Positions 46 to 41,203 of a DNA stretch of 58,904 nucleotides are shown here, in pieces (position 1 is the first letter of the stretch; each line of letters opens with the position of its first letter). This DNA is from Candidatus Daviesbacteria bacterium (GTDB lineage: Bacteria; Patescibacteriota; Microgenomatia; Daviesbacterales; UBA10151), in the NCBI GenBank assembly GCA_016183225.1, contig JACPEZ010000047.1, positions 1 through 58,904 of the forward strand, given 5' to 3'. The notes under the pieces were generated by a model. That model was not told where the DNA came from. It did not search any database and saw only the letters and a program-made list of their open reading frames with translations. Both the position numbers and the translations under genes were made by a program.

Positions 46-1110
46 ATGATCATTCTGGGGATTGAAACTACCTGTGATGAAACAGGAGCTGCCATTCTTC
101 AAATGAAAAATGGCCGAATAACTATTTTATCCAATGTGGTGGCATCAAGCGCGCCCCTGCAAGCTAAATATGGTGGAGTTATTCCCGAGCAGGCAGCCAG
201 AGAACAGATCCGCAGCATCATACCGGTCATTGATGCTGCAATTTCAAATTTCAAATTTCAAATTTCAAATTTAAACGCAATTGCGGTCAGTCAGGGCCCG
301 GGACTAATTGGATCGCTTTTGGTGGGAGTGGAAACAGCCAAGACTTTAAGTTTAATCTGGAAAAAACCCTTAATTCCCGTAAATCATTTAATCGGCCATT
401 TTTATGCAAACTGGATAGAAAGAGAGTCAAGTGTCAAGAGTCAGGAGTCAAGTGAAAAAAAATCTAGACTCTCGACTCTAGCGACTAGCCACTTACCTCA
501 ATTCCCCTGTCTTGGATTATTGGTTTCCGGAGGCCATACTGATTTGGTGCTTTTTACGAATCATGGAAAATATAAATATCTGGGAGGGACAAGGGATGAT
601 GCGGCTGGTGAGTGCTTTGACAAATGCGCCAGACTTTTGGGGTTGCCCTATCCGGGAGGCCCGGAAATCAGCAAACTAGCAGAAAAAGGCAAAGATATAT
701 ATAAATTACCCAGACCAATGATAAATGACGGCTGGGATTTTTCTTTTTCGGGACTTAAAACTGCCGTCGCATCCACCTTCAAGGAGTCAAAGCCCACCTT
801 GAAGGTGGAATGCAATCTGGCTGCCAGTATCGAAGCGGCGATTGTTGATGTTTTAGTAATAAAGACTATTAGGGCAGCTCAAAAATATAAAGTTGAACAA
901 ATTATTGTTGCCGGCGGCGTAGCGGCGAACGAGAAACTCGTTCGCAAGTTAAAAGTTCAAAGTGAAAAGTTAAAAGTTAAATTACACAATCCACCGCCAA
1001 ATCTTTGCACGGACAATGCTGCCATGATAGCGGCTGCGGCATTCTTTCAAAAACCAATAGCTGATCCGCTCAAACTCCAAGCCGATCCCAATCTGTCCCT
1101 GGCCTCTTGA
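46..1110 (+). CDS. tsaD: tRNA N6-adenosine threonylcarbamoyltransferase TsaD (Kae1/Gcp family)
   Basis: ILGIETTCDET N-terminus, GPGL, LVSGGHT and DDAAGE.FDK motifs at TsaD-like spacing. Carries an extra ~22-aa low-complexity loop (ESSVKSQESSEKKSRLSTLATS) encoded by a repeat element. Confidence 0.9.
   Translation: MIILGIETTCDETGAAILQMKNGRITILSNVVASSAPLQAKYGGVIPEQAAREQIRSIIPVIDAAISNFKFQISNLNAIAVSQGPGLIGSLLVGVETAKTLSLIWKKPLIPVNHLIGHFYANWIERESSVKSQESSEKKSRLSTLATSHLPQFPCLGLLVSGGHTDLVLFTNHGKYKYLGGTRDDAAGECFDKCARLLGLPYPGGPEISKLAEKGKDIYKLPRPMINDGWDFSFSGLKTAVASTFKESKPTLKVECNLAASIEAAIVDVLVIKTIRAAQKYKVEQIIVAGGVAANEKLVRKLKVQSEKLKVKLHNPPPNLCTDNAAMIAAAAFFQKPIADPLKLQADPNLSLAS
241..275. repeat. Heptamer tandem repeat (atttcaa x4 plus atttaaa) inside tsaD
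   Basis: Four perfect 7-nt units and one imperfect unit read directly. Translates as ISNFKFQISNLN in the tsaD frame. Confidence 0.9.
424..490. repeat. Bipartite heptamer element (gagtcaa-type x4, A8 spacer, tctagac-type x4) inside tsaD
   Basis: Units gagtcaa/gtgtcaa/gagtcag/gagtcaa, then gtg + aaaaaaaa, then tctagac/tctcgac/tctagcg/actagcc. A sibling element in opposite orientation lies at 43906-43972. Confidence 0.85.
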
Positions 1111-17032: not shown

Positions 17033-17454
17033 AATCCCCGATATTTGATGGTGCGGAAATGAAATACTTCTTCTCCGGTAAGCCTTGCCCCGCCTTCAAA
17101 CTTACTGTCTGCCATGATAAACAGAGTATAGGTGGTGCCCAGTTCGTAAGGGCTGACAGGTATGATTCTGGCGGTTTTTTTATCACCGGACAGTTCCACT
17201 TTATAGTCCAGTTTTGGCTCGATTTTTAATTTCAGTTCGGGGACATTTTCCAAAGGATGATTAAAGCTGATTTCAATGATCTGGTCAGCAGCAATGATAG
17301 TTTCTTCCAGCGGATCAGGCTTGGTGGAGATAATTTTAGGTTTGTCATTGACAGGTGCCGGTTGTGATGGAGCTTGCGGCGGTTTGTTTTTCCATAGAGA
17401 AAAACTAAAAATTATAATAGTTATAAAAATTATAATAGTTATAGATTTTTTCAT
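17029..17454 (-). CDS. Small membrane-anchored/secreted protein, possible Ig-like domain
   Basis: N-terminal hydrophobic segment encoded by a 17-nt duplication (about 17405-17445), followed by a beta-rich ~100-aa region. Last gene of the T4SS-like operon. Confidence 0.35.
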   Translation of the reverse strand: MKKSITIIIFITIIIFSFSLWKNKPPQAPSQPAPVNDKPKIISTKPDPLEETIIAADQIIEISFNHPLENVPELKLKIEPKLDYKVELSGDKKTARIIPVSPYELGTTYTLFIMADSKFEGGARLTGEEVFHFRTIKYRGF

Positions 17455-30524: not shown

Positions 30525-32282
30525 TTAAAATCCGAATCGGCCTCTAGTCGTTCTTCTCAATTGTCCACTCTTTGTTCCTGCAGAAAGCATTTCCCCTGGA
30601 GTTCGAGGTTGCCTCCATTGTTTAGTAGTCGGGTCAAAAAATAGACCAGGTTCATCTGTAATACGCCCAACTTGTCCAGCAAGCCCGCTGGTGCCTTGGC
30701 TGATTTGGCCGGCATAGCCGCGGCCGGCTCCGTAACTGCCACCCAGCTCCTGGCCTATCAACTGTCCTGCCACCCCAATCCTCCCTACAGTCCTGGCAAT
30801 AATATCCGGGATGGCCGGTAAGGCCACCAGGGCTCCAAAAGCCAGTAGTAAATTGATAAAACTGAAATCCAAGCCTCCGAATAGAGGGAAAGTTGACTTA
30901 TTTACAATCCTGCCTTCAGCTGCCTGGGCTACCGGAGTCAAATTATTCGGTTCTGCTTGATTTAACTGGGTAATTTGAAAGACTTCTGATTGAGGCGGTT
31001 GGACAAAACCCGGCCCTAGGATATAAGCCACAAAATATAAAACAGCCAAAACTGCCGGAAAGGCCAGAATATTGGCCAGCATGTTTAAAATCCAATTGGT
31101 GGCCAGTCCCTGTCTGCCCGGTAAAGCAGAGGCTAAAAAATGGAAAGGAGCGATAATAGTTAAGAAAATGATGGTCAGGTAATTATTGATCAGACGAAGC
31201 AGTAATCTAAACATGGCATAAATCAAAATGGCCATGGCTGCAAAGGATAGAGCCAAACTGGCTACCTCAATAGGTGCCAGGGCAGTGCCTCCAAATGATA
31301 TAATGCCTGCTACTATCTGACCGGGTCCCCCGAACATACCTCCGAATGGCATGACAATTTGGGAAACCACAAAAGCTGCCAGAGTTGTAAGAACTTTCTG
31401 CGGGTCCAAATCCCATGGACAGAATCTACAGGTATTTGGATCTGCCAAATGATCCCAGATTGAATTCAATGCATCAGCAACACTACTACTACTAATGGCT
31501 TTGGTAAATGGGGTAAAAAGACCTAAAATATTTTGTCCTTGAATTTTATCTACTAAAATTTGGGGTTGAGCATTAGGCCGTTGGGCAATGGAAAAATAAT
31601 AGCCCACAACATTAGTTCCCACAAAGGCCATGTCTGAAATAAGTCCTGCCAAAAAGTAACTAAAGGTAATCATGATTAAACCAATGACCAGGCCGGGCAA
31701 GGCTGCCTGGGCAGTGATGACTGTTTGGGGGTTGATCCTGTTTCTAAACATTACCATCAGGCCAATTACTACAAAAATAATAATCATAAACACATAGGCT
31801 ATATTTCTTGACACCTGCCATAGGGTTAAAATAGGACTTAAGACTTGGGCTCCCGAACCGATTACCTGGGCTTTGGCTTCTTTGACAATCCCCAAACCCT
31901 GCCCTACAGACGCCAGATAATCGCCGGTTCTAACCGGCGGGTTAAGATAAAGAGCTCCGATTATGGAAGTGGTGGCTCCCAAAGCTCCCCCTTGTAAATT
32001 AACCTGGGATAAAACAGGTATACCTTTTTGATAAGTTAAACAGGGCTGGCCGATTACGGATGAACCAACAGACAAGCAGGAGAAAGTATGAAATAAATTA
32101 TGGACCAGCAGGTCAGTATAGACAGGTGAAGTAGGCGGGACATAGGAGGGGACAGGGGTTTGGGCAAAGGCAGGAGTGGGGAATAATGACAAAATTAAAA
32201 TGACAAATAACAAATGAATGACAAAATTAAAATGACAAATAACAATTTTTTTGAAATTTAGACTTGGTTTGATATTTGACAT
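30525..32282 (-). CDS. VirB6-like polytopic membrane protein of the T4SS-like locus
   Basis: Signal-like N-terminus, multiple TM segments through the central region, Gly-rich C-terminal tail. Located immediately downstream of the pilin array. Start set to ATG MSNIKPS. Confidence 0.5.
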   Translation of the reverse strand: MSNIKPSLNFKKIVICHFNFVIHLLFVILILSLFPTPAFAQTPVPSYVPPTSPVYTDLLVHNLFHTFSCLSVGSSVIGQPCLTYQKGIPVLSQVNLQGGALGATTSIIGALYLNPPVRTGDYLASVGQGLGIVKEAKAQVIGSGAQVLSPILTLWQVSRNIAYVFMIIIFVVIGLMVMFRNRINPQTVITAQAALPGLVIGLIMITFSYFLAGLISDMAFVGTNVVGYYFSIAQRPNAQPQILVDKIQGQNILGLFTPFTKAISSSSVADALNSIWDHLADPNTCRFCPWDLDPQKVLTTLAAFVVSQIVMPFGGMFGGPGQIVAGIISFGGTALAPIEVASLALSFAAMAILIYAMFRLLLRLINNYLTIIFLTIIAPFHFLASALPGRQGLATNWILNMLANILAFPAVLAVLYFVAYILGPGFVQPPQSEVFQITQLNQAEPNNLTPVAQAAEGRIVNKSTFPLFGGLDFSFINLLLAFGALVALPAIPDIIARTVGRIGVAGQLIGQELGGSYGAGRGYAGQISQGTSGLAGQVGRITDEPGLFFDPTTKQWRQPRTPGEMLSAGTKSGQLRRTTRGRFGF

Positions 32283-32368
32283 TTGAGCTTTGAGTTTACT
32301 CACCATATTTTAACATTAACCCAAACTTTTCAGTTTTGCAACCCTTCGACTTCGCTCAGGGCAAATCC

Positions 32369-33642: not shown

Positions 33643-34034
33643 GGTGTTTGAATGATGACCGGCCCTGTTGTGCCAAACAGTCTTGAGAGCAGAAATTGAA
33701 AAACCAGGAAGGCAAACATTAAAATTAAAAATCCGATAATGGCATGAGAGATCATTTGTCTGGCTCCTGCCATTTCCTCTTTATCCCCTCCTGCTTTCAA
33801 ATATCTGAATGCTCCAAACAGAAAATATAATATCACTAATGCGGCGGTAATGGCAAAGGCCGGAGGGACCAGTTTGGATGTGGCCTCGCCCAAAGTTTTG
33901 ATATCCCCAAAGCCAAATTTTTCTCCAATGGGAATGGGGGATTGGGCATGAACGGGAAAAGTAAAAAGTAAAAAGTAAAAAGTAAAAAGTATTAAAACTG
34001 TACCCTGTACCCTGTACCCTGTACCCTTTTTCAA
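33639..34034 (-). CDS. VirB2/TrbC-like T4SS pilin paralog 4
   Basis: GAFRYLKAGGDKEEMAGARQMISHAIIGFLILMFAF. Proposed TTG start at 34034 makes a TTGA overlap with the paralog 5 stop. The track ATG at 34130 would overlap the neighbour by ~100 nt. Confidence 0.6.
   Translation of the reverse strand: MKKGTGYRVQGTVLILFTFYFLLFTFPVHAQSPIPIGEKFGFGDIKTLGEATSKLVPPAFAITAALVILYFLFGAFRYLKAGGDKEEMAGARQMISHAIIGFLILMFAFLVFQFLLSRLFGTTGPVIIQTP
33961..34025. repeat. Two adjacent 4 x 7-nt heptamer arrays (gtaaaaa x4; ctgtacc x4)
   Basis: gtaaaaa at 33961-33988, a 9-nt spacer, ctgtacc at 33998-34025. On the minus strand they encode GTGYRVQGTVLILFTFYFLLFTF, the signal-peptide region of pilin 4. Confidence 0.9.
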
Positions 34035-34354
34035 AATGGTATCCCTCCTCTTCCCGGAGTAAATATCTCTCCGGCATACTTGGCAATAAAATAAGCCATC
34101 AGGGTAACCAGCAGGCCAATGATGGCCCATTTGATTCTGTTTCTGGCTTTGGCCAAGCTTTCTTTGTCTCCGCCGGCAAATATATAGGCCCAGGCTCCCC
34201 AGACAAACCAGAAAAAAGCCAGGAAAACCACCAGATAAAAGATAATGTTTAAAAGCGGGGAAATAATGCTGCCCAGATCCTTGAATTCGGTTTTTAATCC
34301 TGAAGGATTGGGAATGGGTGAAAAACCGGGAATTGTTAGAGCTAATTTATTCAT
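34031..34354 (-). CDS. VirB2/TrbC-like T4SS pilin paralog 5
   Basis: WGAWAYIFAGGDKESLAKARNRIKWAIIGLLVTLMAYF. Start set to ATG MNKLALT. Confidence 0.7.
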   Translation of the reverse strand: MNKLALTIPGFSPIPNPSGLKTEFKDLGSIISPLLNIIFYLVVFLAFFWFVWGAWAYIFAGGDKESLAKARNRIKWAIIGLLVTLMAYFIAKYAGEIFTPGRGGIPF

Positions 34355-34379: not shown

Positions 34380-34736
34380 TCAAGTGGATTTTAACAAACC
34401 GCTTAAAACTCGAGCTGTTTCCATGTGTATTTCTAATATTTTCGCATAATCATCTTTACCAGTAAACTGTCTCTCATAAGCAAAATCAATAAAGAATTCT
34501 AATTCTGTTAAAGACCCCATTGCCATTTGGTAGAAATGCTTTCTATCCTTTAAGCCTCTTCTGCTATATCCTTCTGCAATATTAGCACAAACCGATAAAG
34601 CAGCCCGGCGCATTTGTGAAATCATTCCAAAAAGCTCATCTTTAGGGAATTTTGCTGTGATATCGTAAATTAAATGTGCCAACAAATTAGCTTTCTGCCA
34701 AGCAATGAGTTTTCTGTAGCCGCTATTGTTTCTCAT
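34380..34736 (-). CDS. Four-helix-bundle protein (23S rRNA intervening-sequence protein / Avd family), second copy
   Basis: YRKLIAWQKA...FPKDELFGMISQMRRAALSVCANIAEGYSRRG.KDRKHFYQMAMGSLTELEFF. The ATG at 34736 makes an ATGA overlap with the upstream gene stop. Confidence 0.85.
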   Translation of the reverse strand: MRNNSGYRKLIAWQKANLLAHLIYDITAKFPKDELFGMISQMRRAALSVCANIAEGYSRRGLKDRKHFYQMAMGSLTELEFFIDFAYERQFTGKDDYAKILEIHMETARVLSGLLKST

Positions 34737-35812
34737 ACTTGGGCCGAAGTTAATCTTTCTCTGCCTGCCTGCAAAGTTTCCGGATTGCCTGCAGAAGTTA
34801 ACATCTGAAATGCCCCCAAAAGCATCATCAAAAATGCCAAACCCCCTCCAATGCCCAGGCCAAATTTTAATACATCCTGCACCAAATCCGCAGGATTGGT
34901 ATGTATACACCCAATGGCTGTTTTTATGGCCGGTTTTGCCGGGTCACATTCTAAACCTTTTCCAGAGGTACAAATTCCCAATGCGGCATCCTGCGTAGTG
35001 CAACCCTTTTTAAGGGTACCTGTATCGAGTACTCTGCCAGGTTTATCCGGTGTGCCTACAGTAAACTCCAAGGGGCAAAGGGGTTGTCCAAAACCTCCAA
35101 AGGGTCCAATATTGAGCCGGCGAATATCAATTTTGTGACGCCCCACTGTTTTCCAGGAAGTAGGTATTGCTATGGGACTAAAGTCTGGAGTATCCAAGTA
35201 AAGCAAAAGCTTTGGATCAAAGGAATCGTATGGTGTTGTTATGACACCGTCAAAAAACAATCTAAATTGCGACGTGATGGTGCTGGTTAAATTTTTCCCG
35301 GAAATCGTTAGGTTGGTGGCAGATGTAATTCCTTCTGTAGGTTTAAGCTCCAACTTACAAAGATTGTCGTTATCAACCACATCATAATAAGCCAGGCATT
35401 GGGGTACAGCCTGATTGTTGATAAGTGCGTGTAACACAATCTGTTTATTTTTTCCTTCGGAAAACTGACAGGGAGTAGTGCCGGGAATAAAGATTGACCG
35501 GTCAAGATCGTAAAAGATTTCATCTTCATTGAGCTTGGAGGCTGTGAATGTATAATCATTGACTCGCTGACCGGGGGCGAATGGCAGATCCCGGCAGTTA
35601 AATTCCATCCTGTAGATAGTACTGGCATTGCCTTGGCCCACATTGATAATAAACCTGGCTTTGCGCGTTTCATCTGTTAGAGGTTTACCGTCTGCCGGCT
35701 CTATCTTTACTGGACAGCTTGCTTGGGGGGCGGCTGATATTGAAGAAACACTGATAAGAAAAAATACAAAGAAGAATAATAACAGAAGCAGGATTTTAAT
35801 TATTTTCCCCAT
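34733..35812 (-). CDS. Secreted large-ectodomain protein ending in a half T4SS-pilin module (adhesin-pilin fusion)
   Basis: Signal peptide MGKIIKILLLLLFFFVFFLISVSSISA|AP, a ~290-aa Cys-containing ectodomain, then GGGLAFLMMLLGAFQMLTSAGNPETLQAGRERLTSA. That is pilin TM1 plus loop, but the ORF stops before a second TM. Confidence 0.6.
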   Translation of the reverse strand: MGKIIKILLLLLFFFVFFLISVSSISAAPQASCPVKIEPADGKPLTDETRKARFIINVGQGNASTIYRMEFNCRDLPFAPGQRVNDYTFTASKLNEDEIFYDLDRSIFIPGTTPCQFSEGKNKQIVLHALINNQAVPQCLAYYDVVDNDNLCKLELKPTEGITSATNLTISGKNLTSTITSQFRLFFDGVITTPYDSFDPKLLLYLDTPDFSPIAIPTSWKTVGRHKIDIRRLNIGPFGGFGQPLCPLEFTVGTPDKPGRVLDTGTLKKGCTTQDAALGICTSGKGLECDPAKPAIKTAIGCIHTNPADLVQDVLKFGLGIGGGLAFLMMLLGAFQMLTSAGNPETLQAGRERLTSAQV

Positions 35813-39472: not shown

Positions 39473-41203
39473 ATGAAGAATATGTTTAAAAGTAAGTTTA
39501 TCCTGGCATTTGCGATCTTTTTTTTCTTGCTACTTGCTACTTACTACTTACTACCAACAGTCCGGGCCGATGAAATTGAGGATTTGCAAAGGCAGATTGA
39601 TGAGCTGAATAAGGCCCGGGAGCTGTCTGTTAAAGCTACCACCCCCCTGGAAGGGCAACTGTCCTCTTTACAAAGGCAGCTTGCCCAGATTCAATCAAGC
39701 ATTAACGCTCTTTCCGCAAATATAAAAACAAAACAGCAGGAGCTGGATTTAAGGGAGGAAAAACTGGCTTTGCAGCAGGCTCTTTTAGATAAACGGGTCC
39801 GCTCCTATTACATCCGCTCGTACCTCGCAGACCCTTTACTGGTTATCCTGTCCTCTTTTCAGTCGGGCGATCTTTTCCGGGAGCTGTCTTTCCGCCAGTC
39901 TGTGGCCCGGGAAGACCGCCGGATCATTGCCAGCGTTACCGGGGAAATGCTGGATTTACTGACTCAAAAAGACAAGCTGGAAAAAGATAAAGTCAAGTTG
40001 GCTTCTTTTCAGGTAGAGGTTGACAAAAATGCCAAGTTTTTAGGGGGAGAAATAACAACAGCCAAAAAATATCAGGCCGAACTGTCCACCAAAATTGCCC
40101 GGTTATCTGCCCGCCAGCAGGCCATTATTGCTCAAAGACAAGCCTCTTTAAATTTACCCACTTCTTTGGGAGCCGGGCCGCTTTTTTGTACGGATGACCG
40201 AAAGCTTGATCCGGGTTTTTCCCCGGCTTTTGCCTTTTTTACCTATGGCATTCCCCACCGGGTGGGCATGAACCAGTATGGCGCCTACGGCCGGGCCAAC
40301 GCCGGAGCAAACCATGAGGATATTTTAAGAGCCTATTTTCAAGACTTTTCTTTCGAACAAAAAGGCAATATCAATATTTCGGTTCAGGGATACGGCTCAA
40401 TGCCTTTGGAAACTTATCTGTTGGGCATTTATGAAATGCCTGATTCCTTCCCCATGGAGGCTTTAAAAGCGCAGGTCATTGCCGCCCGCTCCTATGCCCT
40501 TTCGTACACCGGCAGCGGATCAAAAGAAATCTGCACCAGCCAGCAGTGCCAGGTTTACAAAGGCGGCAATAAAGGCGGCAACTGGGAGCAGGCAGTCAAA
40601 TCTACCGATGGCAAAACCATGATTTCCGGCGGCTCGCCGGTGACGGCCTGGTATTCTTCCACTGACGGAGGATATACTTTTTCTTCATCCGATGTGGGCT
40701 GGTCTGCCCGCTCTTTTACCAAAAGAGTGCGAGATACCAACGGAGATATCTCCAGCTTTGCCGATTTACAGGCCAAAGCCTATGACCGGGATTCCCCCTG
40801 TTTTTATGCTGCCCAGGGAGTAAGATCTCAATATGCCAAGAGCGCCTGGCTCAAATCAGAAGAGGTGGCTGATATTGCCAATGTCATTATGCTAATCAAA
40901 GCAGATTCCGGAGTGTCATCCCATCTTTATCAAACCGATAAACCCAACCCGGAAGGAGGAGAAACCTGGAATGAAGATCGAGTCAGACAGGAGCTTCGCT
41001 CAAGAGGCAGCAGTCCTTTTAACAGTGTTTCATCAGTTTCAGTGTCGGCGGATTTTTCCTCCGGGCAGATTACTTCAGTGACAGTGTCGGGTGACCGGGG
41101 TGCGGAAACTTTTAACGGCAGCGAGTTTAAAAATTTCTTTAATCTGCGTGCCCCGGCCAATATCCAGATTGTGGGACCATTATTTTCTGTAGAACAGAAA
41201 TAA
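39473..41203 (+). CDS. SpoIID/LytB-domain cell-wall protein with N-terminal coiled coil
   Basis: Signal peptide, long Q/L-rich coiled coil, then MNQYGAYGRA, AQVIAARSYAL, CTSQQCQVYKG and AWYSSTDGGYT, the SpoIID motif set. Confidence 0.8.
   Translation: MKNMFKSKFILAFAIFFFLLLATYYLLPTVRADEIEDLQRQIDELNKARELSVKATTPLEGQLSSLQRQLAQIQSSINALSANIKTKQQELDLREEKLALQQALLDKRVRSYYIRSYLADPLLVILSSFQSGDLFRELSFRQSVAREDRRIIASVTGEMLDLLTQKDKLEKDKVKLASFQVEVDKNAKFLGGEITTAKKYQAELSTKIARLSARQQAIIAQRQASLNLPTSLGAGPLFCTDDRKLDPGFSPAFAFFTYGIPHRVGMNQYGAYGRANAGANHEDILRAYFQDFSFEQKGNINISVQGYGSMPLETYLLGIYEMPDSFPMEALKAQVIAARSYALSYTGSGSKEICTSQQCQVYKGGNKGGNWEQAVKSTDGKTMISGGSPVTAWYSSTDGGYTFSSSDVGWSARSFTKRVRDTNGDISSFADLQAKAYDRDSPCFYAAQGVRSQYAKSAWLKSEEVADIANVIMLIKADSGVSSHLYQTDKPNPEGGETWNEDRVRQELRSRGSSPFNSVSSVSVSADFSSGQITSVTVSGDRGAETFNGSEFKNFFNLRAPANIQIVGPLFSVEQK

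Follow-up and report, generated by a model that had tools for sequence, protein, structure and literature searches.

The DNA analysed here is a window of 58,904 nt from the genome of an ultra-small groundwater bacterium (Candidatus Daviesbacteria), and its subject is the gene of pilin paralogue 4 (pilin-4). The gene belongs to a pilin operon, in which five small T4SS_pilin paralogues follow one another beside a larger protein whose pilin domain is truncated. It begins with two perfect arrays of tandem heptamers, which are translated and provide the n-region and the h-region of a Sec-type leader. With a probability of about 0.7, these arrays are the two arms of a hairpin cassette of the PF05635 (four-helix-bundle) type that has no gene of its own, lodged behind the TTG start codon of the pilin gene and supplying its leader. 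In relatives, the same junction between two pilin genes is found empty, filled with gene-less arms, or bearing a four-helix-bundle gene between such arms.

Both arrays were called by Tandem Repeats Finder (TRF) on the plus strand as perfect repeats, (AAAAGTA)x5.0 at 33957-33991 and (CTGTACC)x4.3 at 33998-34027; the gene is read from the minus strand, and all features are given in Table 1 in gene orientation. In the frame of the minus-strand open reading frame (ORF), the arrays encode the leader MKKGTGYRVQGTVLILFTFYFLLFTFPVHA/QSP (residues 1-30, with a predicted mature start at Q31; here and below a slash marks the predicted cleavage point), which divides into the n-region MKKGTGYRVQGT, the h-region VLILFTFYFLLFTF and PVHA/QSP. 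By inspection, the leader has the features of a Sec-type signal peptide: K2, K3 and R8 in the n-region, an h-region of 14 residues, and V and A at positions -3 and -1, respectively. The part of the h-region encoded by the right arm has a Kyte-Doolittle mean of 2.06, and T-rich units of this kind are hydrophobic in all three frames (CTT TTT ACT TTT TAC TTT TTA is read as LFTFYFL). The residue A30, at position -1, is invariant in the orthologue alignment A1, and the P-x-[HY]-A motif of the c-region is also kept in orthologues that carry no array. A first-pass annotation, made from the sequence letters, had proposed that the two arrays encode the signal peptide of this pilin: the arrays proved real (100% matches in TRF), the translation was correct, and the arrays do supply the n- and h-regions behind a start codon that lies 5' of them, here and in relatives.

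The same annotation had named a true start downstream of the arrays as a point that would count against it. The TTG at 34034 is the sole canonical in-frame start before the conserved mature N-terminus, it lies upstream of the arrays behind a Shine-Dalgarno sequence, and reading of the sequence from the arrays to the mature motif SPIPIGEKFGF, which is conserved, gave no in-frame ATG, GTG or TTG. The TTG shares bases with the TGA (34031-34033) that ends the upstream pilin gene. The repeat tract sits in the 5' coding region, and its unit length is not a multiple of three. As a side observation, the left arm (GGGTACA)x4 (33998-34027, minus strand) has the form G3N4 x4 on the sense strand and could formally form a G-quadruplex; most other arrays of the genome are not G-rich. 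The GGGNATC x4 repeats of Xanthomonas and Nostoc are likewise formal G-quadruplex motifs (PMC4692102).

Table 1. Position, strand and supporting evidence of the features discussed (window coordinates).
Feature	Position	Strand	Evidence and remarks
Pilin paralogue 4, 131 aa, T4SS_pilin PF18895	33639..34034 (stop codon included)	minus	Pfam E 1.7e-9, ORF, orthologue alignment A1
TTG start codon of pilin-4	34032..34034	minus	Sequence; layout with TTG/ATG at the junction also in relatives
Shine-Dalgarno sequence GAGGAGGG	34043..34050	minus	8 nt 5' of TTG; GGAGG-n-TACCATTTTGA junction kept in relatives
Left (5') arm (GGGTACA)x4.3	33998..34027	minus	TRF 100% matches; translated GTGYRVQGT, polar basic n-region
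Loop/spacer between arms, 6 nt	33992..33997	minus	Four-helix-bundle gene at the equivalent place in G002 and L051
Right (3') arm (CTTTTTA)x5.0	33957..33991	minus	TRF 100% matches; translated LFTFYFLLFTF, hydrophobic h-region
c-region codons P-V-H-A, not repeat-derived	33945..33956	minus	Predicted cleavage after A30 (33945/33944)
Upstream pilin paralogue, 107 aa, T4SS_pilin, without signal peptide	34031..34354	minus	ORF, Pfam
PF05635 (23S_rRNA_IVP) four-helix-bundle gene	34380..34736	minus	Pfam E 2.4e-31; a copy of this element class that retains its gene, one junction upstream of the pilin-4 site in the operon
(CTTGCTA)x2 + (CTTACTA)x2, leader of SpoIID-domain (PF08486) protein	39526..39554	plus	Gene 39473-41203; encodes LLLATYYLL, then PTVRA/DEIEDLQ
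T-rich arm, leader of 593-aa membrane protein (gene 30525-32306)	32185..32245	minus	Duplicated 32-nt block; encodes ICHFNFVIHLLFVILILSLF
A-rich arm (NTCAAAN), leader of 593-aa membrane protein	32268..32286	minus	TRF; encodes KAQMSNIK (n-region)
18-nt x2.1 in-frame duplication (ITIIIF x2), N-terminal hydrophobic segment of 141-aa Big_5-domain protein	17406..17443	minus	Outside the heptamer class

The pilin-4 orthologues compared come from three sources, namely 40 related genomes, metagenome contigs and species-representative genomes, and their source records are labelled Candidatus Daviesbacteria or Microgenomates; the best match among the metagenome contigs had 71% protein identity and serves for comparison and not for polymorphism. 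Labels beginning with C denote other contigs of the window genome, those with G related genomes and those with L fetched loci. All array-bearing orthologues have their start codon (ATG or TTG) 5' of the arrays and are in frame. Gene-less arms like those of the window occur as (AATTTAC)4.6 + (TTTTTAC)6 in L014 and (AATTTAC)4.6 + (TTTTACA)5.3 in L018; as a degenerate (GGGTTTA)4 + (CTATTCC)4.4 in G009, with (CTATACC)4.4 as the second arm in L013; as (AAACTTAAAAGTAA)2 + (CACTTTA)4 in G019; as (AAAGTCA)4 and a T-rich arm in L055; and in further cases. Two loci bear a gene at this place. In G002, of the same genus as the window genome, a PF05635 gene (E 1e-18) flanked by arrays lies exactly between the stop of the upstream pilin and pilin-4, and its right array provides the ATG and the n-region MKIKNLKLKI of pilin-4. 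In L051, the upstream stop is followed by a (GGGTTTA)-type arm x4, a four-helix-bundle ORF (assigned to the family by jackhmmer with PF05635-positive seeds), (CTATACC)4 and pilin-4; the arms that bracket this gene are those of G009 and L013, in which no gene stands between them.

Neither arrays nor a hydrophobic leader were found in G008 (MKTAYA/AVNIG), G020, G013, G007, G014, G017, G021 and others. Among the 21 readable loci on genome contigs (the genome_contigs set), 11 of the 12 hydrophobic leaders gave a strong lag-7 signal (identity of bases seven positions apart), and the remaining nine orthologues had no leader of their own, so that leader and arrays accompany each other, as the first-pass annotation would have it. 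In G010, G006, G012 and L060, the upstream pilin and pilin-4 are fused into one ORF by a 1-nt difference at the overlap of stop and start. The fused junction reads CCAATTTTG (L009 of G010, L060, L069 of G012 and L070 of G006), against CCATTTTGA when the genes are separate (L011 of G008); the resulting pilin-pilin polyprotein has an (S/P)xAYA/A motif after the upstream transmembrane helix, a possible internal signal peptidase site. In a tree of the neighbouring SpoIID-like protein, the leader states are intermixed within one shallow, unresolved clade; changes of state have therefore been frequent and their direction cannot be read. No frameshifted allele was present among the approximately 25 array-bearing orthologous leaders, and the unit numbers of the pilin-4 arms range from 4 to 6 between species.

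The arms of pilin-4 belong to a repeat class that is dispersed over the genome. In the assembly containing the window (784,855 bp, 56 contigs, 40.9% GC, 85% complete), 36 perfect period-7 arrays with at least three copies were found, 18 of which had at least four; the corresponding counts at other periods were 8 (period 4), 1 (period 5), 2 (period 6) and 0 (periods 8-15). With a low-complexity filter applied, 36 period-7 arrays stood against 0-1 for periods 5, 6, 8 and 9, an abundance far beyond chance. TRF returned 158 period-7 rows that merged into 95 arrays; the median unit number was 4.4 (interquartile range 4.0-4.9, from 85 TRF rows with a score of at least 40), and the unit count lies narrowly at 4-5 in coding and non-coding arrays alike. 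According to a crude gene call based on codon usage (913 genes, 91% coding), 66 of the 95 merged arrays are in ORFs and 29 are intergenic; intergenic DNA makes up 9% of the genome, so arrays are enriched there approximately 3.5-fold.

A stricter scan for arrays of at least four units inside ORFs gave 40 at period 7, compared with 0-2 at periods 5, 8, 10 and 11; this list is a lower bound, because the low-complexity check on the first 7 nt, used in the scan of array hydropathy, dropped the pilin arrays. The intra-ORF arrays use dozens of different units, are read in all three frames, and mostly encode hydrophilic peptides in soluble proteins. Some of these peptides recur in unrelated proteins: ESRVKSQ, from the unit AGAGTCA, and TTDYRLPTT + EDGRRKTED, from a GACTACC + CGGAAGA composite present in several different genes. 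The few hydrophobic arrays are all N-terminal (the SpoIID leader, a leader on contig C48 and the pilin arm missed by the ORF scan), and the hydropathy of the arrays did not correlate with that of the surrounding protein (Spearman 0.006).

An enrichment of arrays at the 5' ends of secreted-protein genes, on which the first-pass annotation had built, did not materialise: 8 of the 40 arrays (20%) fall in the first 150 nt, where 19% were expected, and a strong lag-7 signal was given by 4 of 201 hydrophobic N-termini (2.0%) compared with 0.9-1.5% of other coding windows, pilin-4 itself being unscored in this test because the gene call began too far upstream. Because secretome genes are not enriched, the general claim that heptamer arrays encode signal peptides fails. 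The arrays are not locally slipped repeats specialised for export signals, as had been suggested, and appear instead as dispersed arms of PF05635 cassettes that mostly encode hydrophilic peptides. The broader idea that the signal peptides of this genome are generally decayed heptamer arrays was rejected too, the mean lag-7 identity of 178 hydrophobic N-termini being only about 0.011 above that of control lags.

Within the window genome, too, the arrays are linked to PF05635 cassettes. This genome contains 10 four-helix-bundle genes of the PF05635 family, five of them directly flanked by period-7 arrays. Of 7 positions, adjacent arrays are mutually complementary at 5.06, compared with 3.77 in random unit pairs (Mann-Whitney p = 6e-7). 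Arm units are shared with the leaders of the window: AAGTAAA and TTTTTAC arrays, with the unit of the h-region arm of the pilin, stand on either side of the four-helix-bundle gene C14:15217-15573, and TAAGTAT and CTTACTA, the latter being the array unit of the SpoIID leader, flank the gene C33:3188-3565. When compared with these cassettes, the window copy has the two arms of tandem heptamers (x4.3 and x5.0, both with 100% matches), holds only 6 nt between them in place of a PF05635 ORF, and lies in a pilin operon, inside coding sequence, and not in a 23S rRNA gene. Because no PF05635 ORF stands between its arms, it can be classified only as a gene-less derivative. A diversity-generating retroelement (DGR) or Avd-type retroelement was considered as the origin of the four-helix-bundle genes and was rejected, as no RVT_1 match was present in the 85%-complete genome.

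A four-helix-bundle gene is also syntenic in most related pilin loci, perhaps because it was inserted long ago or because it has a function in the operon. Using jackhmmer with PF05635-positive seeds, the gene was found in 22 fetched pilin loci, usually bracketed by period-7 arrays (examples are L005 2279-2659, L008 2135-2524, L011 2117-2527 and L014 736-1101); across Daviesbacteria it mostly follows the adhesin-like gene and precedes the first of the small pilins. In the window (34380-34860, minus strand), the PF05635 gene at 34380-34736 begins on the stop codon of a 359-aa adhesin-like ORF, whose C-terminal T4SS_pilin domain stops at profile position 54 of 71 (ending in RERLTSAQV before the stop codon). 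The orthologue of this ORF in G002 has a complete second transmembrane helix (...RERLTSAIIGLLFVIFAVLLLQIIGF..., L002 2659-3087), and in the window genome some 30 codons at the end of the adhesin gene seem to have given way to the cassette.

The pairing of the two arms was assessed by RNA folding. The window arms (30 and 35 nt) match at 4 of 7 Watson-Crick positions per unit and at 6 of 7 when G.U pairs on the sense RNA are included. The sense RNA was predicted to fold at -31.1 kcal/mol, with a z-score of -2.76 when flanks were included and -1.1 for the arms alone; the antisense strand gave no fold (z +1.57). Among orthologue leaders, that of G009 folded with a z-score of -4.05, and three others gave -0.45, +1.61 and +0.60. 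A hairpin as a constant property of these leaders was rejected, because the two arrays of L014 and L018 are direct and not inverted relatives and three of the four orthologue leaders had no significant fold; the hairpin is common but not obligatory.

Leaders of two further proteins in the window are constructed in the same way as that of pilin-4, namely those of the SpoIID-like protein and of the 593-aa membrane protein, which the first-pass annotation had named VirB6-like. For the SpoIID-like protein, TRF, the ORF and Pfam agree with that annotation, and in 10 of 13 family orthologues a clear array, whether perfect or degenerate, directly precedes the cleavage site as it does here (G014 is doubtful with a possible period of 14, G007 has no array, and G006 and G012 were left aside). 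As units, the arrays have CTTACTA or a degenerate form of it in G000, G002 and G001, CTATACC in G008, G009, G010 and G013, CTATTCC in G005 and G011, and CATACTA in G003. In the 593-aa protein, the duplicated block reported for the leader is present, but measures 32 nt and not 28 nt: it consists of four heptamer-like units plus 4 nt, repeated x1.9 with 100% matches in TRF. The A-rich and T-rich arms of the leader pair in the predicted RNA fold (-20.9 kcal/mol), and the order of A-rich before T-rich arm is the same in 4 of 4 genomes (the window genome and three relatives). The VirB6-like identity was not recovered, Pfam giving only a sub-threshold TcpE match. The fourth example of the annotation, in the 141-aa protein, does not belong here, as its duplication is of 18 nt (9-nt based), neither 17 nt nor a heptamer array.

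Outside the window, a further perfect case is C48:864-1586, in which (TTTCTAC)x5.1 encodes the h-region of MKKLFVFLLSTFYFLLSTPVVLA/A, and a pilin paralogue that has no leader in the window has one built from an array in G008 and in G020. In relatives, the 593-aa protein has extra in-frame arrays past the cleavage site, such as (CTACCAA)x5, which encodes PLPTTNYHLPTTNY (L005 29-65; L013 3271-3295). In-frame arrays were also seen in a tsaD-like ORF of the window (46-1110), at 240-272, 423-481 and 946-981.

Comparison of close relatives showed how uniform the units of an array are. The leaders of L014 and L018 are equal in length, and in four units in a row they show one and the same base difference (TACTTTT against TACATTT); the corresponding arm has a copy number of 5.0 in the window, 6.0 in L014 and 5.3 in L018. 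In the SpoIID leader of two genomes of different genera, G008 (L026) and G009 (L029), (CTATACC)4 and the next 10 nt are identical at 38 of 38 positions, whereas the following 480 nt are 74% identical and their third codon positions 52%, which indicates maintenance of the array at the nucleotide level or its recent conversion. Modules are also common to different genes: in G003, (CATACTA)4 stands in both a pilin leader and the SpoIID leader (L035, L071), and the 81-nt pilin-4 leader of L051 (635-715; MKKMIIFLFLLFVFLYPIPYTLYPVYA) has, as estimated by eye, approximately 90% DNA identity to the leader that the SpoIID-like gene has in G009 and G010 (L029, L030). The concerted units and the modules common to different genes argue for active homogenisation or copying, and against simple decay of one old insertion; the modules would thus move or convert between genes.

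The following course of events is proposed. A gene-less hairpin cassette with arms of 4-5 heptamers (28-35 nt) would have come to sit behind the TTG at the junction of two pilin genes, its arms arriving as one element and not growing in place, and the ribosome would read through both. Since a 7-nt unit is not divisible into whole codons, every reading frame is used along each arm; a heptamer run would thereby cycle through the frames on a stop-free sense strand, and only stop-free orientations could persist in ORFs. The purine-rich 5' arm would be translated into the polar, basic n-region KKGTGYRVQGT, the U-rich 3' arm into the hydrophobic h-region, and the P-V-H-A/Q region of the gene itself would then give the cleavage site. 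A middle A, as in the codons for K, N, Q, E and Y, has its complement in a middle U, as in those for F, L, I and V, and a hairpin of this composition would therefore tend to be read as polar or basic and then hydrophobic; its reverse complement would have the same order. The leader is probably functional and cleaved by signal peptidase I, a gene for which is present in the genome (C49:12125-12607), and the arrays are probably kept uniform by conversion or slippage. The cassettes themselves would be mobile.

Several observations weigh against this account. The window arms match at just 4 of 7 Watson-Crick positions and the hairpin is not constant; arm units differ from cassette to cassette, whereas the ends of a classical transposon are fixed. 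The cassettes have no associated transposase or integrase, no reverse transcriptase was found in the 85%-complete genome, and attempts to define a target-site duplication or the precise borders of an insertion gave no result. Change at this site may have been gain or loss: array-less orthologues keep the (T/P)AYA/A motif of the c-region, and the arms could have been deleted from an older leader. Export and cleavage of the leader are predictions made by inspection.

Among other explanations, the arrays could be an older, independent class of repeats, similar to short tandemly repeated repetitive (STRR) sequences or long simple sequence repeats (LSSRs), arising from polymerase or repair bias, with four-helix-bundle genes preferentially inserting into the arrays or persisting between them; the arrays of the pilin would then at no time have belonged to a cassette. 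This explanation would fit the difference of arm units at every four-helix-bundle copy, the half of these genes that have no detectable flanking array, the many arrays that are single and not paired (such as the SpoIID leader and C48), and the excess of heptamer repeats in many bacteria, with four units preferred in Xanthomonas and Nostoc (PMC4692102, PMC4679880). It is nevertheless unlikely, as the same two arms occur with a gene (L051) and without one (G009, L013) at one junction, adjacent arrays are significantly complementary, and the arm units of the pilin and SpoIID leaders are those of four-helix-bundle cassettes elsewhere in the genome. Slightly less likely again are slippage-prone simple sequence repeats that arose in place and act as a phase-variation switch, turning the pilin on and off by gain or loss of 7-nt units. 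Such a switch is formally possible because a change of one unit would shift the frame, and perfect tracts of this unit length in the 5' coding region, units that change in concert between close relatives, the copy numbers of 5.0, 6.0 (L014) and 5.3 (L018), and the 7-nt-step indels published between strains for the Coxiella intervening sequence (PMC4990558) and the Cyanothece TAACTGA repeats (PMC4679880) would all agree with it. Yet all of the approximately 25 array-bearing orthologous leaders are in frame, copy number stays at 4-5 in coding and non-coding DNA, four-helix-bundle genes are enclosed by the same arms, several soluble proteins that are unrelated to each other contain identical composite arrays, and secreted or surface proteins are not enriched.

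That the arrays are untranslated, as a 5' untranslated region or an intergenic spacer, or that the gene is a pseudogene disrupted by insertion, is very improbable. The operon paralogues and many orthologues work without a signal peptide, which would allow the product to consist of nothing but the mature part. Against this, there is no in-frame start between the arrays and the SPIP...GEKFGF N-terminus, the frame is open through the arrays in every orthologue, the start codon and Shine-Dalgarno sequence are conserved upstream, and the c-region Ala at -1 is invariant.

A wider proposal, which we regard as tentative and rather doubtful, is that hairpin cassettes with heptamer arms are a general, portable source of secretion signals in bacteria of the candidate phyla radiation (CPR), with leader modules copied between genes of one genome and kept uniform at the nucleotide level. 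In that event, any in-frame landing behind a start codon, in either orientation, could create an n-region and an h-region, and nucleotide uniformity may permit control at the RNA level by RNase III (a gene for which lies at C29:10898-11287) or switching of surface proteins by unit count. If the cassette reading of pilin-4 is true, it would provide a concrete and repeatable route from a selfish or structural RNA-type element to a new protein export signal, and the birth and loss of signal peptides could be studied in one pilin family, in which the leader is derived from an element, replaced by fusion to the preceding pilin, or missing. It would extend the 23S rRNA intervening sequence (IVS) and four-helix-bundle elements into protein-coding genes of the CPR, and connect them with the over-abundance of heptanucleotide repeats that has long been noted in bacteria. 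A practical consequence is that such leaders will be treated inconsistently by gene callers and by signal-peptide predictors in CPR genomes.

The excess of heptamer simple sequence repeats (SSRs), the preference for four units, their proximity to start codons, and IVS elements that combine heptamers with a PF05635 ORF are already published. In the literature on heptamer repeats in Patescibacteria, or on such repeats as signal peptides, no prior description was found, nor any account in which arms of this kind lie within protein-coding genes or are read as signal peptides. The IVS of 23S rRNA is inserted at helix 25 or 45 and excised from the RNA by RNase III. In Coxiella burnetii, it comprises an S23p/PF05635 ORF, a 28-bp terminal stem and tandem heptameric repeats at its 5' end, whose number varies between strains (PMC4990558). 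The cassettes of the window genome and its relatives are built alike, with a PF05635 ORF and heptamers between or within terminal inverted repeats; the window copy differs in lying in a protein-coding operon, in having lost the ORF, in its copy-specific arm sequences and, as predicted, in being read as part of the downstream protein and not cut out by RNase III.

Over-representation of heptamer SSRs has been described in many bacteria, with four units preferred in Xanthomonas and Nostoc (PMC4692102); heptamer repeats often lie just upstream of start codons, and the TAACTGA repeats of Cyanothece differ between strains by indels in 7-nt steps (PMC4679880). The heptanucleotide LSSRs that Mrazek et al. 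described in 2007, of which PMC4679880 and PMC4692102 give summaries, belong to the same literature. The LSSRs, the cyanobacterial STRRs and the GGGNATC and Beggiatoaceae TAACTGA classes share with the arrays described here the period of 7, the many loci and the preference for about four units. They differ in being limited to one unit sequence or a small number of them, and in lying mostly between genes and being under-represented in ORFs, whereas the window genome has dozens of units and about two-thirds of its arrays in ORFs. Phase-variable heptanucleotide or tetranucleotide repeats of host-adapted pathogens, for instance at the hmw promoters of Haemophilus influenzae, form long and highly polymorphic tracts that reportedly alter promoter spacing or frame. 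They resemble the present arrays as tandem repeats of a short unit, not a multiple of three, at the 5' end of surface-protein genes, but the arrays here have a fixed 4-5 units, are in frame in all relatives seen and form a dispersed element family.

Repeat DNA has been recruited as coding sequence elsewhere: the tandem repeats of Borg elements are said to give rise to new protein regions, and leucine (CTG) runs occur in eukaryotic signal peptides, so that hydrophobic repeats can make or lengthen an h-region. In those cases the units are multiples of three and yield disordered regions or single-residue runs, whereas in pilin-4 a 7-nt unit in two complementary arms is translated into an n-region followed by an h-region.

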